A stretch of DNA of 64,000 nucleotides from Candidatus Staskawiczbacteria bacterium RIFCSPHIGHO2_02_FULL_42_22 (GCA_001820175.1 MHOT01000012.1:124-64123); one strand, 5' to 3'; shown: positions 35-24,395, counted from the stretch's first letter. Numbers and translations: made by a program. The notes: generated by a model not told the origin, from the sequence alone.

Positions 35-2620
35 ATGAAAGAATTTATACTGTCGCTAACTATGCACAAATTTTTCTCTTTCATCTTTAAACAAAAGAAG
101 ATATTGATTCTTGTGCTTTTGGCATTGGTAATAACAGGAATTATTGCACCTCAAGTTGCTTTTGCCTGGGATTCATGGCAAGACATGTTTAGTGATTGCT
201 TTCTTAACCCCCGTTGCATATTTAGTGAAAAATCTGCTGTAGTAAGAGGTACTGTAGCCGGTATTATTGGCGGACTTATTACTATTATAGGATCCCTTAT
301 TCTTGGAATGACCGCACTCTTTAGTTTTATATCGGGAACCTTACTAAACTGGGTTTTGGTAATTTCGACAAAAGTAAGCTATACCAGCACCGATCCGTTA
401 TATAACCCAGTCATAGCTACCGGCTGGCCCATTGTAAGGGACTTTGCCAATATTATTATTGTGTTAGGCCTTGTTATTATTGCCCTGGCCACCATTTTGC
501 GCTTTAAAAATTATGAAACCCGCCAGCTTTTGGTAAAACTGATCGTTGCCGCCCTGCTCATTAATTTTTCTTTGGTAATCTGCGGCGTAGTTATTGATAT
601 TTCCAATGTGCTTATTTCCTATTTTTTGGGCAACGGCAATGCATGGGCATTTCTTTCCAATGATCAGGGATTCGAGGTTGCGCTAAATTTTTCAAAAAAT
701 GCCGCAAAAGACACCCCCCTTGTTTTATTTTCAAGACTGTTCGCTAATGTATTTTTTAACATTATGCAGGGTGTTATTAATTATCTCTATGTCTTTTTAT
801 TTTTATTTAGAATTTTTGCTCTTTGGGTACTAGTACTTTTATCCCCTCTGGCCTTTGCCTGCTACGTATTCCCCAAAACCAAGACCATGATTTTCGACAA
901 GTGGTTGAATAACTTTTTGCAATGGGCATTTATCGGGGCTCTTGGCGCCATGTTTATTTTCCTGGCAAATAAAATAAATATTGCTATGTCAAAAGCGGGA
1001 ACAGGAATCGCTAACTTTAAATTTCCGGAGGGTAATGGACCCGGTAAGATATTTGATTTTATAGGTAACGATGTTACAAAAATATTTACTTTTTTTGTGC
1101 CGGGAATGTTTTTGGTCATCGGGTTTATTATATCACTGCAGGTTTCAGCCGCTGGGGCCAACTACGCCGTCGCAGGGTTTAAAAGGAGCGGAAATGCAAT
1201 AGCCCGAGCGGGCAAATGGACCAGAAAATTCGCAGCGGATAACATTGGATACAGAGGATATACCGCCACAAGCATAAAAGATGCAGTCGTAGATAGAGCA
1301 ACTAGAATTGGGGAAAGTTTAAGGCTTATTAATAGAGGGACAGCAGATACGAATAAAAAAGTAAGACAATCTGGCAAATTAGATGAAAAGGGACGAGTAG
1401 AACGAGCAAATGATATGAACACTCAGCAGAAACTTGCCGTGGCAAGAGAAACACCATTAACCCAAGCAGCTGGATTAAACCAAGCTGCAGTACTTAAGAG
1501 TATGACCAAAGAAGAGTTTGGCCTACTAAGTAATGATGAGCAAATAAGATTATTAAGAAATAGCGAACAGAACGGTTATGGATTAAAACCACATGAAATG
1601 GTGACTAAAATGAGTACGGCTAATCAAAATCGAGTAGTGCGAGAAGATATGTTTGATTCAAAGACCAGAGGAGAAGCATTAAAATCTTTAGCTGGAAAAG
1701 GGCAAATTAATTCCTCATCGTATAATCCAGCTGTAGCAACATCAGCATTAAATCAGGATGAAATTATTAGAGCAATGCAAGACGCAAGAGATAATGGATC
1801 AGATCTAAAAGACATTATTAGTGGATTAGAAGGACAGGATTTGGCTGACATCATCGGAGAAACTAGAACTGCGGCTGCAATGGGGGAGGAACTTTTTGAC
1901 GGAGCAACAAGGGTTAAATTATTAAAAGCATTGGGCGATAAAAAACAAACTGATTTACTAACACAAGTAGAATTAATGGATGAAATGAGGTTGGCTGCGA
2001 TAAATGGAATGAAATTACCAGATATTGTAGGAAAATTAGATAGTGCAAACCAGGCCCATATCATTGAAAATAATCTATTTAATCCAGAAACAAGAGCTAA
2101 AGTAGTAGAATCACTAGCTAAAAAGGGAAGACTTGACCTTATACCAGTTGCCAGTCGATCAACGGCATTTACTGAAGCCATGGATAATGGAGTTGATGCA
2201 GAAGATTTGGAAAAAGCAGATTACCATGCTGCTGAATTCAATCAAGTTAGAATACAACGACTCATAGCTAACGGCGTTGCTCCAGCCAATGCGCCAACTG
2301 AAGCAAGAAGACAGGTCCTCGATAGTACAATAACTAAAATGGACGGGGATCAACTTCGAGGAATTGACAGAATAGATATTACCGCAGATAGAATTGAAGC
2401 ATTGACTCCGGAAAAAGTACTTGAATTCCGCTATGCTAGCACTGACAGAAGAACGGAAATTAGGACGACAGTAAGAGCAGCCCTTGATACAAAGAGAACA
2501 GCTGCTGATGCGGACTATAACATAGCTCAGGTCGCGGGGGAAGTAGCAAAAGCCGAAAAAGCTCTGGATAAATGGACTAAATTGGATAAGCTAATAAAAG
2601 CAATCGATCTTTTACCATAG
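35..2620 (+). CDS. VirB6/TrbL-like polytopic membrane protein with long hydrophilic C-terminal repeat domain (T4SS-like locus)
   Basis: N-terminal signal/TM then 6-7 hydrophobic helices over ~380 aa (e.g. IIGGLITIIGSLILGMTALF, IIVLGLVIIALATIL, VFLFLFRIFALWVLVLLSPLAF). The C-terminal ~480 aa is hydrophilic with ~40-aa degenerate repeats (ETR..K.L..LG). Placed next to VirB3-like and VirB4 genes. Family assignment by architecture and context only. Confidence 0.45.
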   Translation: MKEFILSLTMHKFFSFIFKQKKILILVLLALVITGIIAPQVAFAWDSWQDMFSDCFLNPRCIFSEKSAVVRGTVAGIIGGLITIIGSLILGMTALFSFISGTLLNWVLVISTKVSYTSTDPLYNPVIATGWPIVRDFANIIIVLGLVIIALATILRFKNYETRQLLVKLIVAALLINFSLVICGVVIDISNVLISYFLGNGNAWAFLSNDQGFEVALNFSKNAAKDTPLVLFSRLFANVFFNIMQGVINYLYVFLFLFRIFALWVLVLLSPLAFACYVFPKTKTMIFDKWLNNFLQWAFIGALGAMFIFLANKINIAMSKAGTGIANFKFPEGNGPGKIFDFIGNDVTKIFTFFVPGMFLVIGFIISLQVSAAGANYAVAGFKRSGNAIARAGKWTRKFAADNIGYRGYTATSIKDAVVDRATRIGESLRLINRGTADTNKKVRQSGKLDEKGRVERANDMNTQQKLAVARETPLTQAAGLNQAAVLKSMTKEEFGLLSNDEQIRLLRNSEQNGYGLKPHEMVTKMSTANQNRVVREDMFDSKTRGEALKSLAGKGQINSSSYNPAVATSALNQDEIIRAMQDARDNGSDLKDIISGLEGQDLADIIGETRTAAAMGEELFDGATRVKLLKALGDKKQTDLLTQVELMDEMRLAAINGMKLPDIVGKLDSANQAHIIENNLFNPETRAKVVESLAKKGRLDLIPVASRSTAFTEAMDNGVDAEDLEKADYHAAEFNQVRIQRLIANGVAPANAPTEARRQVLDSTITKMDGDQLRGIDRIDITADRIEALTPEKVLEFRYASTDRRTEIRTTVRAALDTKRTAADADYNIAQVAGEVAKAEKALDKWTKLDKLIKAIDLLP

Positions 2621-2644
2621 CACTGTTTATTAATTTAAATACAT

Positions 2645-3265
2645 ATGATTGAAGAAAAAAATACAATTATACCTTTTAGTAAGAATGCTACAGATATTCT
2701 TTATGGCATAGAAAAAAAATACAAATTAGAAGAAACTCGAGAGGAAACCATACAAAGGATTCATAATCATAAAATTCACAAAATTAATATTGTGGCTACT
2801 CTTGTAAGGAATTTTATATTGGAAGAAATCTCTAATACAGAATTTCTTGATGCTCTCCATAAAGAGTTGCATATCTCAAAAGAAGCGGTAAAAAATCTAG
2901 CTATAGATATAGTAGATAATTTAATCCCGTTATTAGAAAAAATTCCCGAAGATCAACTGGAAGAATATAATAGAAAAAAACGATCAAAAGAAAAAAATAA
3001 AGAAGCAGATGTTAAGAAAACAGAAAATAAAAAGGGGGAATTTCAAGAACAATTATTAAATAAAATAAGAGGCGATGTAAATATCCCGAAACCCGAACCG
3101 AAAGAAACACCAGCGACGCCCAACCTTAAAAAACCCGAAATTGAAGATGTGGAAGATAATGCAAAGGATATTCAACATGTCCAACAAAAAAAGGAGGAAA
3201 CCGTAGTCCCACCAACGCTAAAAGAAGAAAAGAAGGCAGATCCATACCAGGAACCTGTGGAATGA
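2645..3265 (+). CDS. hypothetical K/E-rich protein
   Basis: Long ORF in coding-dense region; highly charged, no recognisable motif. Confidence 0.3.
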   Translation: MIEEKNTIIPFSKNATDILYGIEKKYKLEETREETIQRIHNHKIHKINIVATLVRNFILEEISNTEFLDALHKELHISKEAVKNLAIDIVDNLIPLLEKIPEDQLEEYNRKKRSKEKNKEADVKKTENKKGEFQEQLLNKIRGDVNIPKPEPKETPATPNLKKPEIEDVEDNAKDIQHVQQKKEETVVPPTLKEEKKADPYQEPVE

Positions 3266-3730
3266 ATTTCTAATTGACCTAATCAAACCCCAATGAACAA
3301 TGAGCCAATTTCTAAAATCTACGACTTAGAAGAAAGAACAGCTAAATTTGGTGAAAACATAATAAAGTTTGCCAGAAAAATACCTAAAGATGTCATTACC
3401 TTACCTTTAATAAATCAGTTAGTAAAATCCGGCACCAGTGTGGGTGCTAATTACTGTGAAGCGGATGATGCTGAATCGAAACAGGATTTTAAACATAAAT
3501 TGGGAATTTGTAAAAAAGAGGCAAGGGAAACAAAACATTGGCTAAGAATGATTGTGATTGCCATACCAGAAATAGAAAAAGAAGCAAAAATACTTTGGCA
3601 AGAAGCTAAAGAATTAAATCTTATCTTTAATGCTATTATTAAAAAATTAAAATAAAGCCATTTTAGACATTCGGTATTCTAAATTAGGATTTGATTAGAA
3701 ATTAGGTTAATTAGAAATTAGAAATTGCAT
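3266..3730. mobile_element. AT-rich inverted-repeat cassette 1 carrying a four-helix-bundle gene
   Basis: Left arm ttctaattgacctaatcaaa (3268-3290) and right arm tttgattagaaattaggttaattagaaattagaa (3690-3726) are inverted copies flanking ORF 3293..3655. Confidence 0.5.
3293..3655 (+). CDS. four-helix-bundle protein (PF05635 / 23S rRNA intervening-sequence protein / Avd-like family)
   Basis: ~120 aa. Family hallmarks present: EERT.KFGENII.F, LINQLV.SGTSVGANYCEA and KQDFKHKLGICKKEARETKHWL. Confidence 0.65.
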   Translation: MNNEPISKIYDLEERTAKFGENIIKFARKIPKDVITLPLINQLVKSGTSVGANYCEADDAESKQDFKHKLGICKKEARETKHWLRMIVIAIPEIEKEAKILWQEAKELNLIFNAIIKKLK

Positions 3731-3756
3731 ATTTTTAATATCATTAAAAATTAGCG

Positions 3757-4146
3757 ATGGCACAATACTCCACTCCACAATTTACTGAAAGCGAAGGGAA
3801 AATTATTTCTTTCCTCACCTTTCGCCAATTTTTTGTCCTCGTTGGAGGAGGAGCGGTTTGTTTTGCGCTGTATTACACCCTGCCGTTTGCTCTTTTTTTG
3901 ATTTTAGGGATAATGGTGGCCACCATAACCGCGGCCATCGCATTTTTAAAAGTAAATAATACTTCAGTAGTAACCCTGGTACTTCACTTTATTACCTTTT
4001 CAATCGCCTCAAAAACGTATGTATGGAAGAAAAAAGAATCGGTATATCCTTTTGCTAGTAAGCGGTACGAGGCCAAGGATATGGAAGTGGGCGGCAAAAC
4101 CGCGCTGGATGCTACTAAAAAAATAGTAGAATACCGCAAGAAGTGA
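3757..4146 (+). CDS. VirB3/PrgI-like small membrane protein (T4SS-like locus)
   Basis: 129 aa with two adjacent TM helices (FFVLVGGGAVCFALYYTLPFALFLILGIMVATITAAIAF). Lies immediately upstream of VirB4, as VirB3/PrgI does in Gram-positive-type T4SS. Confidence 0.35.
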   Translation: MAQYSTPQFTESEGKIISFLTFRQFFVLVGGGAVCFALYYTLPFALFLILGIMVATITAAIAFLKVNNTSVVTLVLHFITFSIASKTYVWKKKESVYPFASKRYEAKDMEVGGKTALDATKKIVEYRKK

Positions 4147-4149
4147 ATT

Positions 4150-4650
4150 TATTTTTATTATGAATCTCGAATCTTGTATCTTGTAGCTTGAATAGAATAA
4201 AGAATCATGAATGATGACAATAAAATCAGAAGGTTTACCGATCTTCATGCTTGGCAAGAGGGGCATAAGTTAGTATTAATGGTCTATAGAAATACTGAAA
4301 CATTTCCCGATAAAGAAAGGTTTGGGATAATAGACCAAATGAGACGAGCTGTAATTTCTTTGACTTCTAATATAGCGGAGGGATTTTCAAGGAGGTCTTC
4401 AAAAGAAAAGAACAGGTTTTATTGCATGGCCCAGGCATCATTAGTAGAATTACAAAATCAACTTATTATTTCTAGAGATATTGGTTATTTATCAAATGAT
4501 GAATTTAAAATAATTGCAGATCAGTCAGTGGTGGCAAATAAACTGTTAAATGGACTCTTAAAAGCTACTAAAGATAAAAAATTTGAATCTTAGATTCTTA
4601 ATTCAAAATTCTATTCAAGCTACAAGATACAAGATTCAAGATTCACACAC
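4150..4650. mobile_element. AT-rich inverted-repeat cassette 2 carrying a four-helix-bundle gene
   Basis: gaatctcgaatcttgtatcttgtagcttgaatagaat (4160-4197) is mirrored by attctattcaagctacaagatacaagattcaagattc (4603-4641), flanking ORF 4207..4593. Confidence 0.55.
4207..4593 (+). CDS. four-helix-bundle protein (PF05635 family)
   Basis: 128 aa. Family motifs present: LTSNIAEGFSRRS..EK.RFY..A.AS..ELQNQL. Confidence 0.6.
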   Translation: MNDDNKIRRFTDLHAWQEGHKLVLMVYRNTETFPDKERFGIIDQMRRAVISLTSNIAEGFSRRSSKEKNRFYCMAQASLVELQNQLIISRDIGYLSNDEFKIIADQSVVANKLLNGLLKATKDKKFES

Positions 4651-4653
4651 ATT

Positions 4654-5328
4654 ATGGCAGAGCAATCAACTCAAGATTTTTTAGAATTCAAAGACATTAA
4701 AGAAGGTATTGTTATCCTTAAAAACAACGATATTCGGGGCGTTTTAATGGTCTCTTCCATTAATTTTGCCTTAAAGTCCGACGATGACCGCGCGGCCATC
4801 ATTTATGCCTTCCAGAATTTTTTAAATTCCCTGGATTTTCCCTGCCAGATTGTGGTGCAGTCAAAAAAAATCAACATCACCCGCTACTTAGACACCCTGC
4901 GCGCTCTGGAAGAAAAGCAAACCAACGAACTGCTTAAAATCCAAACTGCTTCATACATAGAGTTTATAAAAAACCTGGTGCAGGGTGATGCGGTTATGAC
5001 CAAAAACTTTTACGTTGTGGTGCCTTACGCCCTTACGGCAATCTTGGGTACTGGTGCTATTACCAAACAGTTCAATATTCCGGATTTATTGGGCAAAAAA
5101 AATAAGGCCGGCGGGCCGGTGCAATCCATCAGCGACGAGGACTTTGAAAAATGCAAAAACCAGCTTTGGCAACGAATGGAATTTTTGGCCCTTGGCTTAA
5201 AGCGTTGCGGATTAGACAGCGTGCCGCTTACCACCCCGGAATTAATTGAATTGTTCTGGTCACTACACCACCCAAGCGAAGCGGAAGTGGGGTATTCACC
5301 GGAGATAATACCGGAATTATTGAAATAA
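4654..5328 (+). CDS. VirB4-family ATPase, N-terminal segment (split gene)
   Basis: Shows the DIKEGIVILKNNDIRGVLMVSSINFALKSDDDRAAIIYAFQNFLNSLDFPCQIVVQSKK pattern typical of the N-terminal region of Gram-positive-type VirB4 (TcpF/Orf16-like). The stop codon abuts the left arm of cassette 3. Confidence 0.5.
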   Translation: MAEQSTQDFLEFKDIKEGIVILKNNDIRGVLMVSSINFALKSDDDRAAIIYAFQNFLNSLDFPCQIVVQSKKINITRYLDTLRALEEKQTNELLKIQTASYIEFIKNLVQGDAVMTKNFYVVVPYALTAILGTGAITKQFNIPDLLGKKNKAGGPVQSISDEDFEKCKNQLWQRMEFLALGLKRCGLDSVPLTTPELIELFWSLHHPSEAEVGYSPEIIPELLK

Positions 5329-5808
5329 TTCCGAATTATCAATTATCAATTTTCAAGTATCAATCAAGTTTTAAATTACTAAATTATCAATATGGAAAAG
5401 ATATTTGACCTAGAGGAAAGAACTATGGTTTTTGCAGAAAATATAATTGATTTAGTAAGATCAATAAAAAGTGACTCGGTAAATAATAGAATTATCACCC
5501 AATTAGTAGGTTCAAGTGGCTCTATCGGAGCAAATTATTGCGAAGCCACAGAAGGTGAAAGTAAAAAAGATTTTATTCATAAAATTGGCATCGCCAAAAA
5601 AGAAATAAAAGAAACCAAGCACTGGTTGCGATTATTAGCCAGAGCTAATCCTGAGAAAAAAGAAGAAATAAGAAAATTATGGAAAGAAGTACAAGAACTG
5701 CTATTAATATTCTCTAAAATAATCAGAAGCAGTAAAACCAACGCGATTGAAAATTAATTACTTGATCATTTATTGATACTTGAAAATTGATAATTGATAA
5801 TTAAGATC
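5329..5808. mobile_element. AT-rich inverted-repeat cassette 3 carrying a four-helix-bundle gene, inserted between the two VirB4 segments
   Basis: aattatcaattatcaattttcaagtatcaat (5335-5366) is mirrored by attgatacttgaaaattgataattgataatt (5771-5802), flanking ORF 5392..5757. Confidence 0.55.
5392..5757 (+). CDS. four-helix-bundle protein (PF05635 family)
   Basis: 121 aa. EERT..FAENII, SIGANYCEATEGESKKDFIHKIGIAKKEIKETKHWL; paralog of 3293..3655. Confidence 0.65.
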   Translation: MEKIFDLEERTMVFAENIIDLVRSIKSDSVNNRIITQLVGSSGSIGANYCEATEGESKKDFIHKIGIAKKEIKETKHWLRLLARANPEKKEEIRKLWKEVQELLLIFSKIIRSSKTNAIEN

Positions 5809-7611
5809 ATGGCTATTCCATTCTTCAAAAATAAAAAGGGGACAGAAATAGAAGAAGAAAAAATCTTTGGCCAAGACACCCTTAACATCAAGGACATCAT
5901 TGCTCCTCCTTACATTGGCATTACCCAGGATAATATTAAGCTGGGAGAAAAAATAGTAAAGTCATTTTTTATTTTCTCCTACCCCCGGTATATAAATACC
6001 GGCTGGCTGTCTCCGGCCATCAATCTGAATGTTCCCATGAACATTGCTTTTTTCATCCACCCGGTTGACAGTTCCCAGATTTTACGGAAATTGCGTTCAA
6101 AGGTGACCCAAGTTTCTTCAGAATTAATAGAGCGCCAGGAAAAGGGGCTTATCCGCGATCCGGCCCTTGAAACATCTTACCAAGACATTGAAAATTTACG
6201 GGATAAAATCACCACCGCCCAGGAAAAAATGTTTCAGTTCGGGCTGTATATTACTTTATTTGAAGAAAATCCTCAAACCCTCAAAGAAACTGAGGTAACC
6301 CTACGGTCTATTTTTGAATCACGGCTTATTTACATAAAACCGGCGCTCTTTAAACAAAAAGAGGGGTTTATTTCCACCCTTCCCTACGGTCTGGATATGC
6401 TTTCGGTTCACGTGCCCATGGACACCGACCCTTTATCCACTTCATTTCCTTTTATTTCGTTTGACTTAAGCTCAAATGAAGGGATTTTATACGGCATCAA
6501 CAACCATAATAATTCCCTGGTGCTCTTTGACCGCTTCACGCTGGAGAACGCAAACATGGTGGTCTTCGCAAAATCGGGATCCGGCAAGTCCTACGCCATA
6601 AAATTGGAAATTTTGCGCTACCTAATGTGGGGAATTGATGTTATTGTGGTAGACCCGGAAAACGAGTATGAATTTTTATCGGATGGCGTTGGGGGCGACT
6701 TTTTCAACATTTCCCTTACTTCAGATACCCATATTAACCCCTTTGACTTGCCTATGCCCGGAGCGGAAGAAAACCCCGAAGATATTTTGCGCTCTAACAT
6801 TATTAACTTGGTGGGGCTGTTGCGAATTATGCTTGGCGGATTGAGTGCAGAAGAAGATAGCATTGTCGACGAAGCCCTCACTGAAACCTACGCCATCCGC
6901 GATATTACGGCCCAATCAAACCCCGCCACCTGGCAGGAAAACATACCCGTTCTGTCCGACTTTGCGGAAATTTTGGAAAGCATGGCGGGAGCCGAATCGC
7001 TGGCCAGGCGCCTTAAAAAATTCACCCAGGGAACTTTTTCTGATTTTTTCAACCAAAAAACCAATATTGCCATGGATAAGCCATTTATTGTCTTTGGCAT
7101 CCGCGATATGGAAGAATCACTGCGGCCGGTGGCCCTTTTTATGGTCATGCGATACATTTGGAACACTATTCGCACCCACATCAAAAAGAGGATTTTAGTG
7201 GTGGACGAGGCCTGGTGGCTGACCCAGTCCGAAGACGGCGCTTCGTTTTTATTTAGCGTGGTAAAACGCGGCCGAAAATACTGGCTGGGGGTTACCACCA
7301 TCACCCAGGACGTAGAGGACTTTATGAAATCAAGTTATGGTAAGGCCATTATTACGAATTCCTCGCTGCAATTATTACTAAAACAATCACCGGCCACCAT
7401 TGACGTGATGCAAAATATATTCAATTTAACTGAACAGGAAAAAATGCTTCTTTTGGAAGCCAATGTAGGGGAGGGACTCTTTTTTGCCGGTAAAAAACAT
7501 GTCAGTATTAGTATAAAAGCCAGCTACACCGAAGACCAGATTATTACTACCAACCCGGGGGAGGTGGAAAAGATAAAGGAAGCTAAAAGGAAACTAAAGG
7601 AAAATCTATAA
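5794..7611 (+). CDS. virB4: VirB4/TraC/CagE-family T4SS ATPase (C-terminal, catalytic segment)
   Basis: Walker A VVFAKSGSGKSY, Walker B RILVVDEAWWL, motif VTTITQD. The N-terminal IIAPPYIGITQDNIKLGEKIVKSFFIFSYPRYINTGWLSPAINLN matches the conserved VirB4 region. The actual start is possibly the ATG at 5809. Confidence 0.8.
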   Translation: MIIKIMAIPFFKNKKGTEIEEEKIFGQDTLNIKDIIAPPYIGITQDNIKLGEKIVKSFFIFSYPRYINTGWLSPAINLNVPMNIAFFIHPVDSSQILRKLRSKVTQVSSELIERQEKGLIRDPALETSYQDIENLRDKITTAQEKMFQFGLYITLFEENPQTLKETEVTLRSIFESRLIYIKPALFKQKEGFISTLPYGLDMLSVHVPMDTDPLSTSFPFISFDLSSNEGILYGINNHNNSLVLFDRFTLENANMVVFAKSGSGKSYAIKLEILRYLMWGIDVIVVDPENEYEFLSDGVGGDFFNISLTSDTHINPFDLPMPGAEENPEDILRSNIINLVGLLRIMLGGLSAEEDSIVDEALTETYAIRDITAQSNPATWQENIPVLSDFAEILESMAGAESLARRLKKFTQGTFSDFFNQKTNIAMDKPFIVFGIRDMEESLRPVALFMVMRYIWNTIRTHIKKRILVVDEAWWLTQSEDGASFLFSVVKRGRKYWLGVTTITQDVEDFMKSSYGKAIITNSSLQLLLKQSPATIDVMQNIFNLTEQEKMLLLEANVGEGLFFAGKKHVSISIKASYTEDQIITTNPGEVEKIKEAKRKLKENL

Positions 7612-7721
7612 TTAAATTCGAAGCACGAAATCCGAAATACGAAACAAATTCAAATGTTCAAAATCTAAATTTTCAAAACTTGTTTCGAATTTCGACATTC
7701 GAATTTCGAGTTTGGTAAGTT
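7612..7721. repeat. AT-rich inverted repeat spacer
   Basis: cgaaatccgaaatacgaaacaa mirrored by ttgtttcgaatttcgacattcgaatttcg; no ORF inside. Confidence 0.5.
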
Positions 7722-8324
7722 ATGTCTAGCGAAGTCACATCGCCACAAGGATTATTAATGCTGATTATTGCCGGCTGCTTTGATATAGCCGCCATTCTTA
7801 TATTTCTTATTGAGGTGTGGGTTGATTTGGGAATTTTCAGCACTTTGGTTGGTTGGACTGGGTTGTTGTTTGTTTTGACATGGGCATTCCTTACCGGACG
7901 CATGTCAGTAACCGATATAACCAACATATTAAAAAGAAAATCAAAAAAGGGAAGTGGGTCGCCAGAAAAAATAGCCGGTTCGAGCGATATGAAGGATTGG
8001 AAACAAAATAAAGACGGGGTATATGAATTACAAAATAAAGAGTCACCAGAAACCGATGATGCAAATAATCAAGGAACCAGTGGGCTTAGTGGGTTTACAA
8101 AGAAATTTGGGTGGGGTTTAATTGTAGAATTAGTTCCATGGATTAGTGCGGTTTTACCAATGCTTACTATGCTTGTTTGGAGATTACTACGAGATGATAG
8201 TGGAGGAGTCAGCCAAAACAACGACTCCCAAGAAGAAGGCCAGTCAGGCACCTTAAAAATGCCGGATAAAAAACCAACCAGCGCGCCGCAAACGCCCGCC
8301 GCACCGGCTGAAAAAGCGGCGTAA
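7722..8324 (+). CDS. hypothetical membrane protein (3-4 TM, disordered Pro/Ala-rich tail) within T4SS-like locus
   Basis: Two N-terminal TM helices, a hydrophilic linker and a third TM (FGWGLIVELVPWISAVLPMLTMLVW). Confidence 0.35.
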   Translation: MSSEVTSPQGLLMLIIAGCFDIAAILIFLIEVWVDLGIFSTLVGWTGLLFVLTWAFLTGRMSVTDITNILKRKSKKGSGSPEKIAGSSDMKDWKQNKDGVYELQNKESPETDDANNQGTSGLSGFTKKFGWGLIVELVPWISAVLPMLTMLVWRLLRDDSGGVSQNNDSQEEGQSGTLKMPDKKPTSAPQTPAAPAEKAA

Positions 8325-8342
8325 AACTTGAGATTGCTTCGG

Positions 8343-8532
8343 CCGCGGCCCTATGGACATCACATCCAGAAACCGCACTCCAAGTCTTGCCGGATTTGCC
8401 AATCTTGGGCAGTTTTCACAAAAAATTTGTTCGGCGTAGCTACGGCTAGGCCTTACAAATTTTTTGCTCCAAGCCGCCCAATATTGCGAAACCGTCGGCA
8501 ACTTTAGTGCGGTTTCTGGATGTGATGTCCAT
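8343..8532. repeat. family-B MITE-like element (27-bp TIR atggacatcacatccagaaaccgcact), copy 1
   Basis: Perfect terminal inverted repeats. The internal sequence is the reverse complement of copy 32318..32497. Flanked by TA on both sides. Confidence 0.7.
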
Positions 8533-8540
8533 AACAACCC

Positions 8541-8686
8541 TAGATTGCTTCGTCGTCACGCCTGCGGGCGCAACTCCTCGCAATGACGGGGGACACAGAA
8601 TTCGCGTCATTGCGAGGAGCCCGCAGGCGACGAAGCAATCTAACGGTGAACGGAGATTGCTTCGCTGCGGCTCGCAATGACGGATT
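8541..8686. repeat. GC-rich palindromic element (GTCATTGCGAGG...GAAGCAATCT...AGATTGCTTC...CCTCGCAATGAC family), tandem pair
   Basis: Nested inverted repeats read directly: cgtcattgcgaggagcccgcaggcgacgaagcaatctaacggtgaacggagattgcttcgctgcggctcgcaatgacgg. Confidence 0.7.
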
Positions 8687-8773
8687 GATGACGAGCTTAA
8701 AACATTATTCACAGTTCAAGGAAAATATGATGTGTTATAAAATTTCCGAATATGGTAAAATATTCGAATAGTT

Positions 8774-11700
8774 ATGATTAAAAAACCGAAAAAACTAATT
8801 TATTTCTTTGCCGTTTTTTTGATAGGTTTTTTACTGTTAACGGTAAGCTATAGCGCTTTGGCGCTGGAAGTGCAATATCCTCACATTCCGGGATTTTCGG
8901 ATATTAAAAATGGAAGCACCCTACCCGATTATATTAATTATTTCTTTGGCTTTATTATGGTAACGGCCGGAATCATTGCGGTTATTTCCATTGCCATTGG
9001 TGGCCTGCGCATGTTAATTTCTGCCGGTAACCCGGGGGCCCGCGGCGAGGCGATGGACCGGATTTTTGGAGGAGTGCTAGGTATTATTTTATTGATGTTT
9101 TCCTACGTTATTTTAGAGACCATTAATCCCCAGCTGGTGAATTTGCAAGAAACAAGTGTAGTGTCTCTAAACAAAGGAATGTTTTTAGGAGAGCCGAAGG
9201 AGGGACAGGCCATGAATAATAATTCACACTCCATTACGGCTAATTTCGCCCAAAAATTACTAATAAATAACCCCCTTGCGGTTGCAATCGCGAAAGCCGA
9301 TGGAAGTTTCTATAGCCAATTTAATATTGAAGATTATGATATCACCCCATTGCCCGAATCCATAATTAATAGAACTTTCAAGCCGGGGAGTTTTGTTTGG
9401 AATAATTGTCCGGGGTGTGTTGAAGGAGACGGTCCGGGTAAATTTCTGCGGGTGACATACCGTTCTGAGGGCGAAGAGTTTAACGATGACGATACTGCGG
9501 CAAAGCGTGTTCATTTACCAGACATAGAAACTACTGACGAAAATTTTGACGAGGTTAGCTTCTCTCTTTATGGAGTAAAAGACCTTGATTGGGCCGAAAA
9601 AACGCCGGGGATCTATCTTTTTAAGACCGATGATTGCACGGGCCTGCCCACCCGTGTCATTACTAGCAGCGGGCAAATTCCCCCCGGTTTTCAAAACCAG
9701 GTGCGTTCAGCCCAGATTCTTAATGGGAATGAAGAGGGAGACCCCCGCTACGGATTTATTTTAAACACCAGCCCCGATTTAAAGGGCACCTGCAGCCAGC
9801 CGTTTATGAATTATGAGGCCAGCGACCCTGATTACGAGGACGGAGAAGACCATGATTCCGAAGACGAAGCCCCGTGTTTTCCAATTATTAACGACTCACC
9901 TTCGTGCGATTTTACGGTCCCCCAAACCCATAATGTATGCGTTAACCAAACCTGTACCCAAGTAGACGGAGTGGGGGACAATGCCTGCAACACTAGTTCC
10001 GACTGCCTGCCCCAAACCCACAACGAATGCGTCAACCAGGCCTGTCAAGAGATAAGCGGAGCTGGCGATAATAAATGTACCAGCAACAGCGAATGTCTTC
10101 CTACGTGTAATACCGATACACAAAAGTGCGAGGTGGGGGGCGGAGGAAAGAGTTGTAATTCTGATTCAGAATGTACAACTTCTGTTCATAACGAATGCGT
10201 CAACCAGGCCTGCCAAGAGGTAAGTGGAGCTGGCGATAATAAATGTACCAGCAATAGCGAATGTCTTCCTACGTGTAATACCGATACACAAAAGTGCGAG
10301 GTGGGGGGCGGAGGAAAGAGTTGTAATTCTGATTCCGAGTGCACACCGCAACTGGCAGTATTGACCATAAAAAAAGTGGTTGATAATGCGGGGGTTGGGA
10401 ACTCTAATTGCGAAAGTTTTCAGACCTATCGTCTATTTGATTATAATCACTCTGAATGGCTTGGGCTTAACCTATGTCCATCGGGTACGGTGGATATACC
10501 GCTTGAAGCAGGTTATTATGCATTTATGGAAAATGAGCGCAGGCCCCCCTACAAGGCAACTTATGAAGGCGCATGCCCCAGCACCAATATTATCCAAGTA
10601 ACCGAAGGCCAAAATGCCACCTGTACGGTTACTAATACATATAGTTATGGATGCAATAGCCAAAACCAATGTGTTGAAGGGGGCACGGTTAAAGGTTGTG
10701 ATATTGCCAACGGTGATGCCGACTGCACTGCGCCAACTGGCAAATGTAGCACTAACCCTAGCCAGACCTATACTTGTTCTCCGTCAAATAATGGCGCCCC
10801 TTGCACCTCTGCCAATGTATGTAAACCAAGATGCAATAGCCAAAACAAATGCGTTCAGGGGCTTACTGAAGGGCCAGAATGCAGTAATCTTGGCGGTGAC
10901 TGTACTGCATCCATTCTTGTAACAAAAGAATGTGATCCGGTTGGTGATCAAGGGCGCTTTATTATGAGAAAGGACGGTCAGAATATGAATGGCCCAAACA
11001 CTCCGGATATAGGATGTGGCGAAAGCGCAAGCGCCCAAGTAACACCGGGAAGAGATTATATCATAAGCGAAGCTCCTGGAAACAGTACCACTGATCTCTC
11101 TAAATATGATACAGTTATTGGCGGGGAATGCGACCGAAGCGGCCGATTTACTGCGAAGGTAGGTGTTAATAGGTGTACCATCACCAATAACAAGAAACAT
11201 GCGTATTTGCAAATAAAAAAAGAGTGCAGTCCCACAGATGATACTGGTCACTTTGACTTGCGAATTGATGGCATAACGACTTATAGTCAGAATATGGATT
11301 GTGTAAATAATACCACTACTCCACGTAGAGATGTGGGTACTGGAACCCATACCGTCAGTGAACTTGCGGGAAGTAATACCAATCTTTTCGATTACACCAC
11401 TACTATTGATTGCGGTTCGGGGGCGACCAGCGGAACTAGTAAAACTATCACCCTGCAAAAAGATGATGATAAACTCTGCACTATTACCAACACTAAAAAA
11501 CCACCCGGTTCCGCGTCTATAAAAGTAGTAAAACAGTGTAATCCGAGTAGCGACCCAGGTCGTTTTAAAGCAACTATTAATGGCGAAATTGCCAGCAACC
11601 AAGAATTAACATGTACCGGCCCCACGTCATCGGTAACTATTAATGTATCACCCGGAAATTATCTGGTAGGTGAAGTTGCTGGCAGTGGTACCAACCTCTC

Positions 11701-13414
11701 CCAATACAACCCACCGGTGTTTGGTGGGGACTGCACTCAAAGTGGACAAATTATTGCGGAAGTAGGAAAAACGAATTCATGTATTATTACTAATAGCCCC
11801 AAAACTGCTTCATCAGCAACCCTGCGTTTTCATAAGACCGTATTTAATAGCGACAACAATGGTAGTCCCGATTATTCTCCTAATGATTTCGGACCATTTA
11901 CCCTGCAAAATACATCTCGTTCATATACATTTAATGTAGATGCAAGCGGCGATGCCATAATTACTAATATTGTACCCGATACATATTCTATTATTGAAAA
12001 TTATCAAGATTATTATGAGGCAACTTATACCGGAACCGGTGGAGCATGTAACGGCAATAATATCATACCTTTAGGACCAGGAGAAACAAAGGAGTGCATT
12101 ATTTTTAATAGGTGGGAGGGAGGAATATTAGTGTTACATAAAATTATAAAGGATGGTGATTTAAAAAGCGAAGATTTTCTGCCATTTATTTACGATGCAG
12201 ACTTGGATTATGGTCAATTCTATACTTGGGGAGTACCAATACCAGTTTATGCTGGTCATCAGTTGTACGTCTCTGAAATCATACCTGCTAATTCTAATTA
12301 TACCGGCCAATTTGCTCCCCCAAGCGATTGCGATGCAAATGGAGGCATTATTCTTGACGTAGACCAATGGGCGGATTGCAATATTACTAATACCTATCAA
12401 CCTAGCCCATCAGACACAATGTTAACGGTAATAAAAAAAGTAGTGGGAGGACCACTGGATGGGCAATCAAGCCAGTTCCGGATGACCATCGCTGGTTCTG
12501 CTGGCCCTGCCGTACAGGGAGATAATTCTTTTCCTGGCACAGATGACCCCGGCACCCCAAAGATGTTATCTATAACTGGCCCTACCGACTACCGCGTCGA
12601 AGAATCATCGGTCAGCGGTTACACAATGACATATTATAATAATTGCTCAGGTACCATAAACCCGGGGGATCACATCATCTGCAGTATTACTAATACTTAT
12701 CAATTAGGAGCAGGATTAATAAACCCTCAAAACGCTATTTTGGCTAATGTTTCAACCAGTATTATTAATAAAATAAGGCCAGAAATAATTTCTCTTGCCT
12801 CACCCATGCGCATCCGGCTTGCCGCCACGGTTGATGATAGGGGAGGCGTCGGTAGCGACCCTATCGCATTCCCCGCCAGTTATATTTATGTTATTAAGGG
12901 TTACAACCCTGGCAATCCGGAGTTTGATACCCCGGGAACCGGGGTAAGCTTGTATGCCGGCACGCGCTACAAATACCTTCCACCTTCCACTATTAAACAA
13001 CACTTTATTTTAGATGGGACAACTGATTGCGACGACACCTATCAAACCTGCTGGCCCTACACCAACACCGACGATTTATTAAAAGAAATTGGCGATATCC
13101 AGCCGGGTTTTGGTCAAAACCAGGATATCTGCAAGCGAACCTATATTTACCCCTGCACCCAGTACATCGACCACCAGGGAAGCTACCTTACGGTTTTATA
13201 CACCCAAAACCAGGGAAACCCCTACAACCAAACCTGCAGCACTTTCATTAATTCGGTTGACTTTATCAGGGACACCAATAATATTCCCATAGGTAGCACA
13301 CCTATTAACAATCCCTTGCCCACCAATTCTAATATTGATGTAAATAGCGATATTAGTATTTTTGATAATAATAAATACGTCTGCAGAGTGGATATCTTCC
13401 CAATACTGCCGTAG
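8774..13414 (+). CDS. giant surface protein: VirB2/TrbC-like pilin N-terminal module fused to ~1400-aa cysteine-rich and repeat-rich extracellular region (putative T4SS-anchored adhesin)
   Basis: N-terminus has signal/TM, helix YINYFFGFIMVTAGIIAVISIAIGGLRMLISAG, short charged loop NPGARGEAMDRIF and a second helix GGVLGIILLMFSYVIL (VirB2/TrbC-like). These are followed by an acidic linker and four CxNQxCQxxxGAGDNKCTSNSECLP modules. After that come ten or more ~100-aa beta-rich repeats ending in C.ITNT. Confidence 0.5.
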   Translation: MIKKPKKLIYFFAVFLIGFLLLTVSYSALALEVQYPHIPGFSDIKNGSTLPDYINYFFGFIMVTAGIIAVISIAIGGLRMLISAGNPGARGEAMDRIFGGVLGIILLMFSYVILETINPQLVNLQETSVVSLNKGMFLGEPKEGQAMNNNSHSITANFAQKLLINNPLAVAIAKADGSFYSQFNIEDYDITPLPESIINRTFKPGSFVWNNCPGCVEGDGPGKFLRVTYRSEGEEFNDDDTAAKRVHLPDIETTDENFDEVSFSLYGVKDLDWAEKTPGIYLFKTDDCTGLPTRVITSSGQIPPGFQNQVRSAQILNGNEEGDPRYGFILNTSPDLKGTCSQPFMNYEASDPDYEDGEDHDSEDEAPCFPIINDSPSCDFTVPQTHNVCVNQTCTQVDGVGDNACNTSSDCLPQTHNECVNQACQEISGAGDNKCTSNSECLPTCNTDTQKCEVGGGGKSCNSDSECTTSVHNECVNQACQEVSGAGDNKCTSNSECLPTCNTDTQKCEVGGGGKSCNSDSECTPQLAVLTIKKVVDNAGVGNSNCESFQTYRLFDYNHSEWLGLNLCPSGTVDIPLEAGYYAFMENERRPPYKATYEGACPSTNIIQVTEGQNATCTVTNTYSYGCNSQNQCVEGGTVKGCDIANGDADCTAPTGKCSTNPSQTYTCSPSNNGAPCTSANVCKPRCNSQNKCVQGLTEGPECSNLGGDCTASILVTKECDPVGDQGRFIMRKDGQNMNGPNTPDIGCGESASAQVTPGRDYIISEAPGNSTTDLSKYDTVIGGECDRSGRFTAKVGVNRCTITNNKKHAYLQIKKECSPTDDTGHFDLRIDGITTYSQNMDCVNNTTTPRRDVGTGTHTVSELAGSNTNLFDYTTTIDCGSGATSGTSKTITLQKDDDKLCTITNTKKPPGSASIKVVKQCNPSSDPGRFKATINGEIASNQELTCTGPTSSVTINVSPGNYLVGEVAGSGTNLSQYNPPVFGGDCTQSGQIIAEVGKTNSCIITNSPKTASSATLRFHKTVFNSDNNGSPDYSPNDFGPFTLQNTSRSYTFNVDASGDAIITNIVPDTYSIIENYQDYYEATYTGTGGACNGNNIIPLGPGETKECIIFNRWEGGILVLHKIIKDGDLKSEDFLPFIYDADLDYGQFYTWGVPIPVYAGHQLYVSEIIPANSNYTGQFAPPSDCDANGGIILDVDQWADCNITNTYQPSPSDTMLTVIKKVVGGPLDGQSSQFRMTIAGSAGPAVQGDNSFPGTDDPGTPKMLSITGPTDYRVEESSVSGYTMTYYNNCSGTINPGDHIICSITNTYQLGAGLINPQNAILANVSTSIINKIRPEIISLASPMRIRLAATVDDRGGVGSDPIAFPASYIYVIKGYNPGNPEFDTPGTGVSLYAGTRYKYLPPSTIKQHFILDGTTDCDDTYQTCWPYTNTDDLLKEIGDIQPGFGQNQDICKRTYIYPCTQYIDHQGSYLTVLYTQNQGNPYNQTCSTFINSVDFIRDTNNIPIGSTPINNPLPTNSNIDVNSDISIFDNNKYVCRVDIFPILP
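10008..10340 (+). repeat. near-perfect tandem duplication (~150 bp x2) inside the adhesin CDS
   Basis: cacaacgaatgcgtcaaccaggcctgtcaagag...gattcagaatgtaca is repeated with about 7 substitutions. It encodes a duplicated HNECVNQACQE.SGAGDNKCTSNSECLPTCNTDTQKCEVGGGGKSCNSDSEC module. Confidence 0.8.
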
Positions 13415-13525: not shown

Positions 13526-14596
13526 GGTATAAAGGTAGGTAACTTGTTGCTAATTTTTGAAGTAGATATACCACTTAAAGAAATCCTTTCGCCTGCCCTT
13601 TAACAATCCGCGATGTTGTCGGTAAATAATTTTTAATCTTGAAAAATATCCCTCGATCTTGTTCGTGGTTGAAGGAATATTTTTATCTTTTAAATAATGG
13701 AACATGCTCGGCAGAGCGTTTATCAATAAATTTCTGGTTGCTTTAAGATCGCTGAAAACTTTATCCTTTGAAGACAGGAGGTTCACCGATTTTCCGTATT
13801 TCCTTTCCCATTTTTGAAAAGTATTTAAGAATATTTTTTTACCTCTTTCATTTTTAATTTTTGTAACAGATAGCAATATATCTCTTAATTTCTTGCTGGC
13901 CTCCAGCTTTGGATTTCTTCTTAACCATGATAACCCCTGCCGTTGAATGTGTGCCAAACATCTTTGTATGATAATATCTGGCCAGACATCTTTAATGGCC
14001 CTCATTACGCTTGTATTGCCATCTACCGTGATAGCCATGGGCATAATGCCGCAGCTCTTTGACTCTTCAAAAATTGATCTTGCATATTCGTAATTTTCTC
14101 TGATACAATATTTATGATTTACGATTTTACCATTCGAATTGTCTATTAGCACCATTAGACAATTTTCATGTTTGAAATATGTCCCATCAAAAAGTAAATA
14201 TTTTATTTGATGGTAATTTAGAGTTTTTTTATCCGGCGCTTTGTTCATCCAAAAAGATAATATTTGTTTTATCTTCCAAATTCCACGACGGCTAATACTG
14301 ACTAATTGCCTTGCCGAATAACCCTCAACAATCCACAGCTCAAACCATTTTCTTTCGTTAAATTCCTTGTTCTTGCGATTATGAAAAGTGTAGGTGTGCT
14401 TACAAATTTTACATCTATACCTCTGGTAACCGCATGAAGTGCGACCAAATAATTTAACATTCAAAGAACCACACTTTAGACAACTTTTTTTTCATAATAT
14501 TGAACTGATTTGATATTATTCCAGATTTTAATTGTAATTTACTCTCAAATTAGCACGAAATCCGCATTTTTAGCAACAAGTTACCTACCTTTATAC
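13526..14596 (-). mobile_element. IS1595-family-like insertion sequence with 27-bp perfect TIRs and 8-bp target duplication
   Basis: TIR gtataaaggtaggtaacttgttgctaa at 13527-13553, with its reverse complement at 14570-14596. The direct repeat tcattgcg occurs at 13518-13525 and 14597-14604. There is a single transposase ORF. Confidence 0.7.
13550..14464 (-). CDS. transposase (N-terminal zinc ribbon plus DDE domain; IS1595-like)
   Basis: C..C...C..C near the N-terminus (CGYQRYRCKICKH). DDE-region motifs LFDGTYF, ITVDGNTSVMRAIKDVWPD and TNKIEGYFSRLK. Length 304 aa. Confidence 0.7.
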   Translation of the reverse strand: MNVKLFGRTSCGYQRYRCKICKHTYTFHNRKNKEFNERKWFELWIVEGYSARQLVSISRRGIWKIKQILSFWMNKAPDKKTLNYHQIKYLLFDGTYFKHENCLMVLIDNSNGKIVNHKYCIRENYEYARSIFEESKSCGIMPMAITVDGNTSVMRAIKDVWPDIIIQRCLAHIQRQGLSWLRRNPKLEASKKLRDILLSVTKIKNERGKKIFLNTFQKWERKYGKSVNLLSSKDKVFSDLKATRNLLINALPSMFHYLKDKNIPSTTNKIEGYFSRLKIIYRQHRGLLKGRRKDFFKWYIYFKN

Positions 14597-14744: not shown

Positions 14745-15245
14745 TTATTTGGGACTTATCACAATCCGCCGCTCCGCCCCCTCACCCTGGCTTTCAACTA
14801 TTACCTCTTTATGTGACTCTAATTCAGTATGCACGATTCTCCTTTCATATGAAGACATTGTGGGCAGGGTTATGGGTTTTCCTTGCGCCAGGGCCTCGGA
14901 CACCGAATCATTGGCTATTTTTTTTATGTATTCAATTTTATTTTTTTTGTAGTCGTTAATATCTAAATATACATAAAAAAATTTCCCCAATTTTTTGGCC
15001 AGCATAATTCGCAGCAGGTAATTGAGGTCAAATAGCGTTTGGCCATTTTGGCCAATCAGTATTTGCGGCTCATCCAGCCGCACCTCTATGGTAACACTAT
15101 CAACCACTTCTTTTTGATCGGCATTATCTTCTGGGGCCTGGCCGGCCTTATGCTCAATATTAATGTCTTGAACTGGTAGCGTCAATTTTTGGAAAAATTC
15201 TGACACCGTTTCGCGTATATTTTTTATGTCTTGATCGTCTATCAT
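14745..15245 (-). CDS. khpB: RNA-binding protein Jag/KhpB (KH + R3H domains)
   Basis: C-terminal R3H motif ITLPTMSSYERRIVHTEL. Conserved position downstream of yidC. Confidence 0.7.
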   Translation of the reverse strand: MIDDQDIKNIRETVSEFFQKLTLPVQDINIEHKAGQAPEDNADQKEVVDSVTIEVRLDEPQILIGQNGQTLFDLNYLLRIMLAKKLGKFFYVYLDINDYKKNKIEYIKKIANDSVSEALAQGKPITLPTMSSYERRIVHTELESHKEVIVESQGEGAERRIVISPK

Positions 15246-15253
15246 AATTAATA

Positions 15254-15410: not shown

Positions 15411-15451
15411 TAATTCTTTAAATGTAACCTCTTGCGCCTCTCCCATATATA

Positions 15452-18655: not shown

Positions 18656-18689
18656 GCAACCCCTCACGCCCCACATAACCCCTCACGCC

Positions 18690-24271: not shown

Positions 24272-24395
24272 GAAAATTTGAAATTTGAAATTTTCAATTT
24301 GAAATCAATATTAAATGTCTAAATGATTAAATTTGAAAACACGGCATCGTTTTTTAATCATTTCAAATTCACTTTTTTCAAATTGATTTCAAATT

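Follow-up and report, generated by a model that had tools for sequence, protein, structure and literature searches.

The window analysed here (the whole stretch of 64 000 nucleotides) comes from Candidatus Staskawiczbacteria bacterium RIFCSPHIGHO2_02_FULL_42_22 (GCA_001820175.1, MHOT01000012.1:124–64123), and its subject is a set of three small genes that punctuate an operon resembling a type IV secretion system (T4SS). Each gene encodes a four-helix-bundle protein of family PF05635 and stands between two inverted arms built of short tandem words; gene and arms together are referred to as a cassette. Cassettes 1, 2 and 3 occupy three consecutive gaps of the operon, namely those between a 206-amino-acid (206-aa) open reading frame (ORF) and the gene for a PrgI-family protein, between the latter and the gene for the N-terminal part of VirB4 (VirB4-N), and between VirB4-N and the gene for the ATPase body (VirB4-C). 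The first-pass annotation, made from the sequence alone, had placed them correctly; the VirB3 gene named there is the PrgI gene, which belongs to a VirB3-like family. Coordinates are collected in Table 1.

Anatomy of the cassettes

Profile matches and an inverted-repeat search confirmed that the PF05635 genes at 3293, 4207 and 5392 are flanked by inverted repeats made of short words, as first described; the arms, given then as 30–40 bp, measured 19–52 nt. They consist of tandem words of 7–9 nt (aattatc in five copies; gaatctc/gaatctt/gtatctt/gtagctt; ttctaatt). The 52-nt arms of cassette 2 (4161–4212/4594–4645) are 88% complementary and those of cassette 3 (5334–5385/5751–5802) 83%. Cassette 1 has two pairings, one of 19 nt at 95% (3265–3283/3701–3719) and one of 23 nt at 78% (3279–3301/3676–3698); its left arm begins on the final base of the 206-aa ORF's stop codon and extends into the start codon at 3293, and its palindrome is weaker because this arm is short. 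When the arms were folded as RNA, as had been suggested, long terminal stems of ∼19–37 bp were obtained in each cassette (37 bp in cassette 2), with z-scores against dinucleotide shuffles of −6.0 for cassette 2, −5.4 for cassette 3 and −2.5 for cassette 1.

A fourth cassette lies between uvrB and ruvA. Its PF05635 ORF (48069–48422) contains one in-frame TAA at codon 72, and the N-terminal part scored 54.6 bits. All four PF05635 copies of the window are situated between protein-coding genes; an Rfam scan of the whole window detected a tmRNA only and gave no match at the arms. A promoter and terminator scan of 2500–8000 gave counts equal to the shuffle level and the arms were not terminator-like. 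The first-pass annotation had considered that the arms might be ordinary terminators shared with unrelated genes, or might be missing from other copies of the family; neither was found to be so, control genes being without them and arms being present at the fourth copy of the window and in other genomes.

Five hairpins without a gene also fold better than shuffles (solo hairpins in Table 1), and those at 16295 and 16783 flank rnpA. The solo hairpin 16295–16432, to which the right arm of cassette 1 is homologous, aligns end to end with cassette 1 minus its ORF; that at 16783–16896 aligns end to end with cassette 3 minus its ORF, in the orientation of the host operon. One genome therefore holds full and internally deleted copies with common arms, which is the pattern of autonomous elements accompanied by derivatives of the miniature inverted-repeat transposable element (MITE) type. 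The gene-less hairpins are best read as such ORF-less derivatives that have kept their arms.

Table 1. Position of the T4SS-like operon, the cassettes and the solo hairpins in the window.
Feature	Position	Strand	Description and evidence
T4SS-like host operon	35–13414	+	Punctuated by cassettes; ORF calls, profile matches
861-aa membrane protein		+	First in operon; orthologue in L012 matches TrbL_3
206-aa ORF	2645–3265	+	Second gene of operon
Cassette 1, left arm	3265–3301	+	Words ttctaatt / gacctaat / caaa...; inverted-repeat search, RNA fold
Cassette 1, cargo	3293–3655	+	120-aa PF05635/TIGR02436 four-helix-bundle protein, 2RLD-like subfamily
Cassette 1, right arm	3676–3727	+	attag-type words, 4–5 copies; longer than the truncated left arm
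PrgI-family (VirB3-like) protein	3757–4146	+	Profile match
Cassette 2, left arm	4161–4212	+	gaatctc gaatctt gtatctt gtagctt gaataga...; ATG at 4207 inside arm
Cassette 2, cargo	4207–4593	+	128-aa PF05635 protein; nearest Xanthomonas XCC0516 (PDB entry 2GSC)
Cassette 2, right arm	4594–4645	+	Ends 8 nt short of VirB4-N start codon
VirB4-N, TraC-like	4654–5328	+	Covers positions 4–118 of CD1110 VirB4 profile
Cassette 3, left arm	5334–5385	+	aattatc twice, aattttc, aagtatc, aatcaag...; begins 5 nt past VirB4-N stop codon
Cassette 3, cargo	5392–5757	+	121-aa PF05635 protein; 56% identity with cassette 1 cargo
Cassette 3, right arm	5751–5802	+	Ends 6 nt short of VirB4-C ATG at 5809
VirB4-C, ATPase body	5809–7611	+	Covers positions 167–734 of CD1110 VirB4 profile
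Solo hairpin	7614–7713	.	cgaaat-type words, VirB4-C/7722 ORF junction; arms 7614–7650/7677–7713, 37 nt, 76%; z −3.65
200-aa ORF (7722 ORF)		+	After VirB4-C in operon
1546-aa protein	8774–13414	+	T4SS_pilin N-terminus; last gene of operon
Solo hairpin	16295–16432	.	Between yidC and rnpA; arms 32 nt, 91%; z −8.3
Solo hairpin	16783–16896	.	Upstream of rnpA; z −5.2
Solo hairpin	24260–24431	.	tttgaaa-type words; z −4.0
Fourth cassette	47992–48466	+	Gap uvrB (−)/ruvA (+); arms 47992–48020/48438–48466, gcgc-type words, 29 nt, 86%
Solo hairpin	60878–60982	.	aatttaa-type words; z −2.7

The ORFs at 3293, 4207 and 5392 scored 52, 109.7 and 64.3 bits against PF05635 (cut-off 33.8) and 75, 101 and 83.8 bits against TIGR02436 (cut-off 24), and sequence matches were obtained to 2GSC (3.6e-23) and 2RLD (4.1e-18). 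The model of the cassette 2 protein comprises four helices with a predicted local distance difference test score (pLDDT) of 90.6. Its best structural match is 2GSC (XCC0516; template-modelling score, TM, 0.81/0.90; root-mean-square deviation 0.7–0.8 Å), followed by 2RLD (BT_0352) and then by the Avd subunits 8UB7 and 4DWL (TM ∼0.75/0.85). Residues Q44, S51, N55, E58, S64 and E81 (cassette 2 numbering) are invariant in both subfamilies and fit the G..R...S...N..E motif described for the family (PMC3936711). The crystals of 2GSC and 2RLD contain five chains each; Avd, the accessory protein of diversity-generating retroelements (DGRs), forms a barrel of five subunits and binds RNA stem-loops within the DGR complex (bioRxiv 10.1101/2023.10.23.563531). 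A scan of viral contigs with the cassette protein profile found no relative.

Between cassette 2 and its orthologue in locus L010 the protein is 89% identical at a proportion of synonymous differences (pS) of 0.73, with a ratio of nonsynonymous to synonymous substitution (dN/dS) of ∼0.02, which indicates that the cargo protein is functional. The non-coding arms are ∼90% identical while synonymous sites are saturated, so that the arm sequence must be constrained too. As judged from these divergences, cargo protein and arm words are both under purifying selection. In the orthologue of cassette 2 in L105, CAAG has become CTAA in one word of both arms, which could be a compensatory change or arm-to-arm conversion.

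Occupancy of operon junctions and distribution in other genomes

Occupied and empty sites were compared in three orthologous contigs and 80 metagenome contigs with orthologous operons. The junctions occur in three states: empty (spacer of ∼10 nt), occupied by a solo hairpin (∼100 nt) or occupied by a full cassette (∼450–530 nt). At VirB4-N/VirB4-C, 48 junctions were empty (spacer −1 to 44 nt), 20 were mid-sized (72–148 nt) and eight were full (450–505 nt); the corresponding numbers at PrgI/VirB4-N were 41, eight and 23. Hairpins of like words accounted for 13 of the 20 mid-sized spacers at VirB4-N/VirB4-C and other palindrome families for seven; some mid-sized hairpins, such as those of L131, L157 and L165, have their arms in common with the full cassette at the same junction in L014. 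Several spacers counted as empty (L100, L113, L114) retain the footprint of half an arm. The first-pass annotation had proposed making this comparison between strains; eight contigs with an identical operon (one single-nucleotide polymorphism in 2,593 nt) contained no empty site and no change in word number, and since they represent the same strain they are uninformative on occupancy, the empty, solo and full states being found among more distant relatives. An apparent 110-aa variant in L002 proved to be merely a gene-call difference.

The cargo recognised at full sites was PF05635 in 21 cases, a PD-(D/E)XK protein (PF13366) in seven and a 96-aa GIY-YIG protein in two, and all of these ORFs (30/30) lie on the operon strand. 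Word-built arms of the same kind surround the PD-(D/E)XK cargo; inverted repeats of other kinds surround the GIY-YIG cargo. The median distance from stop codon to arm is 2 nt, that from arm to start codon 8 nt and their sum 9 nt, compared with a median of 10 nt for empty spacers. The element enters the ∼10-nt spacer immediately past the stop codon and in operon orientation, and the outer ends of the arms are the ends of the element.

Copies at different junctions were traced in two loci. The VirB4-N/VirB4-C cassette of L010 encodes a protein that is 65% identical to that of cassette 1 of the window, which occupies a different junction, and the two have the arm words ttctaattgacctaat in common. 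In L012 a PD-(D/E)XK cassette stands at two consecutive junctions (4797–5298 and 5713–6000); the copies are 96.5% identical including the arms, and in the second an internal deletion of 214 nt leaves an ORF of 63 aa. Cassettes have been gained, lost, copied to other junctions as a unit of gene plus arms, and reduced by decay to solo hairpins.

The possibility that cassette 3 had split VirB4 was rejected. Throughout the Parcubacteria-type clade VirB4 is encoded by two genes, a TraC-like N-part of ∼220 aa and an ATPase of ∼600 aa. Stand-alone VirB4-N proteins of ∼220 aa are the norm (7,741 matches, the best 120 of which are all 216–228 aa long), and in most relatives VirB4-N and VirB4-C are 4–25 nt apart with nothing between them. 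On this comparative evidence the split is ancestral and cassette 3 not its cause; because the split is clade-wide, the cassette occupies a pre-existing intergenic gap.

The gap between the 206-aa ORF and PrgI was found to receive other genes as well. In L099 (1954–2647) it carries a 171-aa NYN-domain (RNase-like) ORF at which no flanking inverted repeats were detected, and in L010 and L014 AbiEii/DUF6922 genes occupy it on the opposite strand. It seems to be an insertion hotspot in general.

For the census one genome per species was scanned, and 80 loci with close homologues (61–80% identity) were collected from Patescibacteria, Planctomycetota, Omnitrophota, Verrucomicrobiota, Acidobacteria, Cloacimonadota and others. 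A four-sequence alignment served as the query because a seven-sequence alignment was too diverse for a locus search, and the census is accordingly biased toward the cassette 1/3 subfamily. A flanking inverted-repeat score of at least 15 was reached by 76 of 91 PF05635 copies and by six of 91 shuffles. The arm test at other PF05635 genes that had been called for gave the same picture: 69 of 83 genes in the 80 genomes were armed at this threshold, against six of 244 neighbouring control genes. The arms have a median length of 32.5 nt, or ∼4–5 words, and among 62 of them the period was 7 in 32 and 9 in 25 (7 or 9 in 57/62). A CTAAT core was present in 60 of 76 left arms of the cassette 1/3 subfamily, the spacing of AAT being 7 (115 times) or 9 (71 times), and two or more CTAAT occurred within 60 nt upstream of 55 of 85 PF05635 copies, compared with six of 298 controls. 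The neighbouring gene lay on the same strand in 67/69 cases upstream and 62/65 downstream, the baseline for adjacent control genes being 0.83. Antisense exceptions to this ∼96% co-orientation were seen in L176 (Nostoc edaphicum pNe_5, nrdB/nrdA) and L178 (a Calothrix PCC 7716 plasmid, HlyD-like/ABC-transporter pair).

Cultured bacteria gave corresponding results. Inverted arrays of period 7 flank the PF05635 gene in ten of 12 plasmid loci, with words such as TAGGGAG, AGTCAGG, TAGGGTG, AAGGGAA, GGGAAAA, ACAGGTG and GGTTCAA. The sites of the plasmid-borne genes, whatever their arms, include cmr2/cmr3 (Picosynechococcus), cas6/cas4 (Pseudanabaena, Anabaena 90), nrdB/nrdA (Nostoc edaphicum) and other operons. 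The ten include a locus on an Azospirillum lipoferum plasmid, which lies inside a 23S rRNA gene and is a genuine intervening sequence (IVS), with arms of GGACAGA/GGACGGA words of period 7. The XCC0516-type gene of Xanthomonas, to which structure 2GSC belongs, is located between accB and accC with the arms GGGAATCGGGAGTGGAGAATCGGGAATCGG / CCCATTCCCCATTCTCGACTCCCTATTCCC, which are exactly the GGGAATC repeat. At cyanobacterial copies the arms are arrays resembling short tandemly repeated repetitive (STRR) sequences. The arrangement of gene and arms stood as first described, and it reaches well beyond the three junctions: it recurs elsewhere in the window, in the 80 genomes and in cultured bacteria.

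Interpretation and alternative explanations

The cassettes are probably copies of a widespread selfish element that has the anatomy of an ORF-bearing 23S rRNA IVS and lives in the spacers of mRNA operons. Its plan is one promoter-less small gene tightly bracketed by two inverted arrays, each with ∼3–8 tandem words 7 or 9 nt long. The first-pass annotation had already suspected a family of small palindromic insertions that carry a passenger akin to the ORFs of IVSs, and the census, the occupancy, the termini and the folds speak for it. The closest described counterpart is the Coxiella IVS, a 428-nt element in which terminal inverted repeats make a 28-bp stem and the loop contains the S23p ORF; ahead of the ATG stand three tandem GACAGAT heptamers, the copy number of which varies with the strain. 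RNase III excises the element in vitro, the ends having been mapped, and its ORF is under reductive evolution (PMC4990558).

In the operons, the arms would pair in the polycistronic transcript, and a stem of 20–37 bp would loop out the insert and restore the native distance from the stop codon upstream to the start codon downstream. By analogy with Coxiella, the stem may be a substrate of RNase III, the cleavage of which would cut out the cassette mRNA, separate the host cistrons unharmed and leave them usable. It is proposed that the element is tolerated in essential operons and rRNA helices because such cleavage spares the host cistrons. The cargo gene would be expressed only by read-through from the host, and should require that the stem be opened or cut, since the cassette AUG is located within or beside the stem's inner end.

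Several observations weigh against this interpretation or its mechanism. The stem of cassette 1 amounts to just 19–23 nt. The cas6/cas4 PF05635 gene of the Pseudanabaena galeata plasmid pPg_01 (L180, 1390–1980) is flanked by heptamer arrays in direct orientation, ∼14 copies of AAAGCTA upstream and ∼10 copies of AAAGCCA downstream, which do not fit a stem. Among the arm mismatches there is no excess of sense-strand G·U over A·C (131 versus 151), so that selection has left no signature specific to the RNA strand. For the CTAAT class the pairing score is 21.2 between the two arms of one element, compared with 17.3 for arms of different elements, and the own arm is the best partner in only three of 55 cases. 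RNase III processing is argued wholly by analogy with the Coxiella IVS, and no signature of rnc (RNase III) was present among the ORFs of the 64-kb window. Lastly, no target-site duplication, transposase or integrase was associated with the cassettes in the window; just outside the arms of cassettes 1–3 there is no direct repeat of 4 nt or more, the fuzzy ends of the arms leaving room for a duplication of 2–3 nt.

The pairing data bear on what the arms are for. A search within the CTAAT class for covariation specific to the individual element gave a weak signal; as own arms pair barely better than foreign ones, their complementarity comes mostly from a shared conserved word in inverted orientation. 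This points to sequence-specific recognition of the arm words, and not to pairing alone. The word arrays might then be binding sites for the cassette's own ring-shaped protein, a pentamer of which would bind several words of an array on single-stranded RNA or DNA and thereby control translation of the element, protect or present the stem, or drive copying, with arm pairing being secondary. The TRAP ring reads triplet repeats in a comparable way. The cargo protein is the sole component that travels with the arms across phyla; the words are conserved over this range despite saturated synonymous sites and account for most of the complementarity, the Pseudanabaena copy has direct arrays, and a median arm of ∼4–5 words may be set beside the pentamers of the solved relatives 2GSC and 2RLD and the pentameric Avd, which makes a ring of this kind a reasonable hypothesis. 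The ORF is moreover under strong purifying selection and co-oriented with host transcription, and the homologue Avd, to whose subunits 8UB7 and 4DWL the fold matches, binds RNA stem-loops. On the other side, CGAAT/CTAAT-type words also flank cassettes with PD-(D/E)XK cargo, so that a given type of word can go with more than one cargo family, and the words vary among the cassettes of this single window. As a replacement for the IVS-like reading this account is possible, if rather doubtful.

A mobile element of a more conventional kind would leave some of the same traces. If the cassettes were DNA transposons or MITEs, the arms would serve as terminal inverted repeats on which a transposase encoded outside the element binds in several places, with the small ORFs as passengers. 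This agrees with terminal inverted repeats that set the ends of the element, with full and internally deleted copies sharing arms in one genome and with the variable occupancy. The three cassettes, however, show no target-site duplication, and within one genome each family has arm sequences of its own, too different for a single transposase to act on all of them; the 64 kb contain no transposase other than the Mutator-family fragment at 13553–14248. The bias in ORF orientation would also be unexpected for a symmetric terminal-repeat element unless expression of the ORF matters, and we regard the explanation as unlikely. Very improbable is a role for the host, in which the hairpins would be selected regulatory structures (mRNA stabilisers, attenuators or decoupling signals) and the small proteins accessory subunits of the T4SS-like machine. 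It would fit that the cassettes occupy successive junctions of a single operon and that their arms are conserved between the window and L010, but most orthologous operons are without cassettes (48 and 41 empty junctions), and cassettes are also present at the unrelated accBC, cmr, cas6/cas4, nrdAB, rnpA and uvrB/ruvA sites. Close homologues occur across many phyla, the arms are not terminator-like and one copy (48069) is a pseudogene, all of which also count against this role.

Hardly any weight is given to the idea, largely refuted, that leftover avd genes of DGRs or integron-type gene cassettes are involved. PF05635 includes Avd, and cassette 2 has a weak bAvd match; the score against the Avd equivalog NF033474 was 21.8 bits against a cut-off of 80, in cassette 2 only. 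That neither a reverse transcriptase nor a template/variable repeat pair is present had been noted at the outset, and this was borne out: 28 window ORFs scanned against Pfam (every called ORF of at least 214 aa except DnaA at 17297, Fpg at 35571 and a 311-aa ORF at 37108) contained no reverse transcriptase, no YxDD-type ORF was found, and the longest direct repeat in 3200–5900 is 31 nt at 71%. Integron arrays consist of small, promoter-less, co-oriented ORFs, a description that the cassette ORFs share, but integron cassettes are stacked next to an integrase/attI platform and have one attC site downstream of each. In the window no integrase was found in the scanned ORFs, the arms lie on both sides of the gene, and the cassettes stand singly among host genes and are not stacked in an array.

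The reading as an IVS-like selfish element can tentatively be extended, at chances that we put somewhat below even. One element family would then explain the ORF-bearing IVSs of rRNA, the multi-copy genes annotated as four-helix-bundle proteins and the abundant heptamer repeats of bacteria; heptamer arrays would be its ends or ORF-less remains, and an Avd-like pentamer would read several tandem words at once and so control how its own element is processed, expressed or copied, perhaps via an RNA intermediate like its DGR relative. The link between IVS ORFs, orphan four-helix-bundle paralogues and heptamer repeats is drawn from the solo hairpins of the window together with the cyanobacterial, Xanthomonas and Azospirillum arms.

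Genomic surroundings, known systems and implications

Downstream of the T4SS-like operon lies a neighbourhood of the origin type (14748–20360), with jag(R3H)-yidC-rnpA on the − strand followed by dnaA (17297–18652) and dnaN (19236–20360); the operon is therefore chromosomal and near the putative origin. The Mutator-family fragment (232 aa, − strand) directly adjoins the operon on its downstream side.

The window contains further palindromes. An element of ∼180 nt, distinct from the word hairpins and richer in GC, is present in three copies (8352–8533, 32317–32498 and 56494–56681), with perfect or near-perfect arms of 28–48 nt (TATGGACATCACATCCAGAAACCGCACT...) and a second inverted repeat inside. 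Short hairpins of the type TGTCATTCCCGCGAAAGCGGGAATCCAG / CTAGATTCCCGCTTTCGCGGGAATGACA occur at 49158–49230 and 57406–57478, and this family replaces the word hairpin at T4SS junctions of L123, L158 and L166. Palindromes of the GATTGC...CTCGCAATGAC type were located at 8540–8680 and 18740–18887 of the window, at 4167–4624 of L098 and at junction C of L117, L123 and L152; in L098 such arms flank the 96-aa GIY-YIG gene at the VirB4-N/VirB4-C junction, which suggests a second cassette lineage of a different arm type. A tight hairpin with arms of 37–38 nt and a loop of 3–5 nt (TTTCGGCC.AAATTTGCTATAATTTTTCGGCGGGCC / GGCAAGCCGAAAAATTCTATCAAATTT...) is found three times (15292–15370, 23043–23120 and 28109–28187). 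At 36459–37090, between fpg and the 311-aa ORF, a 176-aa ORF (36515–37045; PaaX central, Cas2-like domain) has a copy of one 48-nt palindrome (...CTCTAAATTCCGAAGCTTCGGAATTTAGAG...) on either side; this looks like a further hairpin-bounded single-gene insertion of a different kind.

The cassettes share with the 23S rRNA IVSs of the Leptospira, Coxiella and Xanthomonas/Brucella type the PF05635 cargo, an ORF in the loop of a stem of terminal inverted repeats, tandem heptamers in the arm beside the start codon, a length of ∼430–500 nt and an ORF prone to decay. Excision by RNase III without re-ligation is a feature of the rRNA IVSs for which the 19–37-bp stems of the window may in principle be long enough. 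Unlike IVSs, which are inserted in helix 25 or 45 of 23S rRNA, the window copies lie between protein-coding genes, and they coexist with ORF-less solo hairpins of the same arms and with versions that carry a nuclease cargo. Being outside the rRNA gene, they are a variant and not a member of the ORF-bearing IVSs. With the Avd proteins of DGRs they have in common the superfamily and the fold, which in Avd forms a pentameric nucleic-acid-binding barrel; they differ in that there is no reverse transcriptase and no template/variable repeat, the equivalog model is not reached and sequence identity is ∼9%.

Simple sequence repeats (SSRs) of heptamers, such as the cyanobacterial STRR sequences, the GGGAATC repeat of Xanthomonas and the TAACTGA repeat of Beggiatoaceae and cyanobacteria, are likewise intergenic tandem arrays, often in convergent pairs, the copy number of which varies between relatives; here, unlike in the published descriptions, such arrays form both termini of a gene cassette. 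The GGGAATC heptamers of Xanthomonas have been catalogued, with 70 convergent pairs and similar repeats in Nostoc (PMC4692102), as have the TAACTGA repeats (PMC4679880). Both papers treat the repeats as stand-alone SSRs and as candidates for G-quadruplexes or regulator binding, and neither mentions S23p, four-helix-bundle genes, XCC0516 or acc genes.

MITE-type palindromes (Correia/NEMIS, ERIC, REP/BIME) resemble the cassettes as short intergenic inverted-repeat elements that are co-transcribed with operons and vary between strains, and Correia elements are reported to be cut by RNase III. They differ from the cassettes, in which the arms are tandem word arrays that are not the same from family to family, the full forms carry a non-transposase ORF and target-site duplications were not observed. 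Free-standing homing-endonuclease genes and rRNA insertions of the candidate phyla radiation (CPR) are also small selfish ORFs in conserved loci (GIY-YIG; in the cassettes PD-(D/E)XK as well), and 23S_rRNA_IVP ORFs have been reported from CPR 16S and 23S insertions (PMC11270868). The cassettes are distinguished from these by their sites in operon spacers, by a dominant PF05635 cargo without known nuclease activity and by the inverted word arms that define the element. 23S_rRNA_IVP genes inside cas loci have been read as a functional association, the flanking repeats being left unmentioned (PMC3936711). In a literature search that had most subscription journals outside its range, no paper was found that links PF05635 cassettes with bacterial heptamer repeats or that describes word arms around PF05635 genes outside rRNA.

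For PF05635/S23p, a large family of which two crystal structures but no function are known, these results provide a concrete biological frame as the cargo of a mobile palindromic cassette. For annotation they carry a warning, in that PF05635, PD-(D/E)XK and GIY-YIG mini-genes would be insertions and not members of the operons in which they are found, among them those for T4SS, CRISPR-Cmr, acetyl-CoA carboxylase and ribonucleotide reductase. An origin is offered for the over-represented heptamer repeats of bacterial genomes, and a general rule is suggested for how an insertion may stay harmless inside an essential polycistronic transcript or an rRNA.

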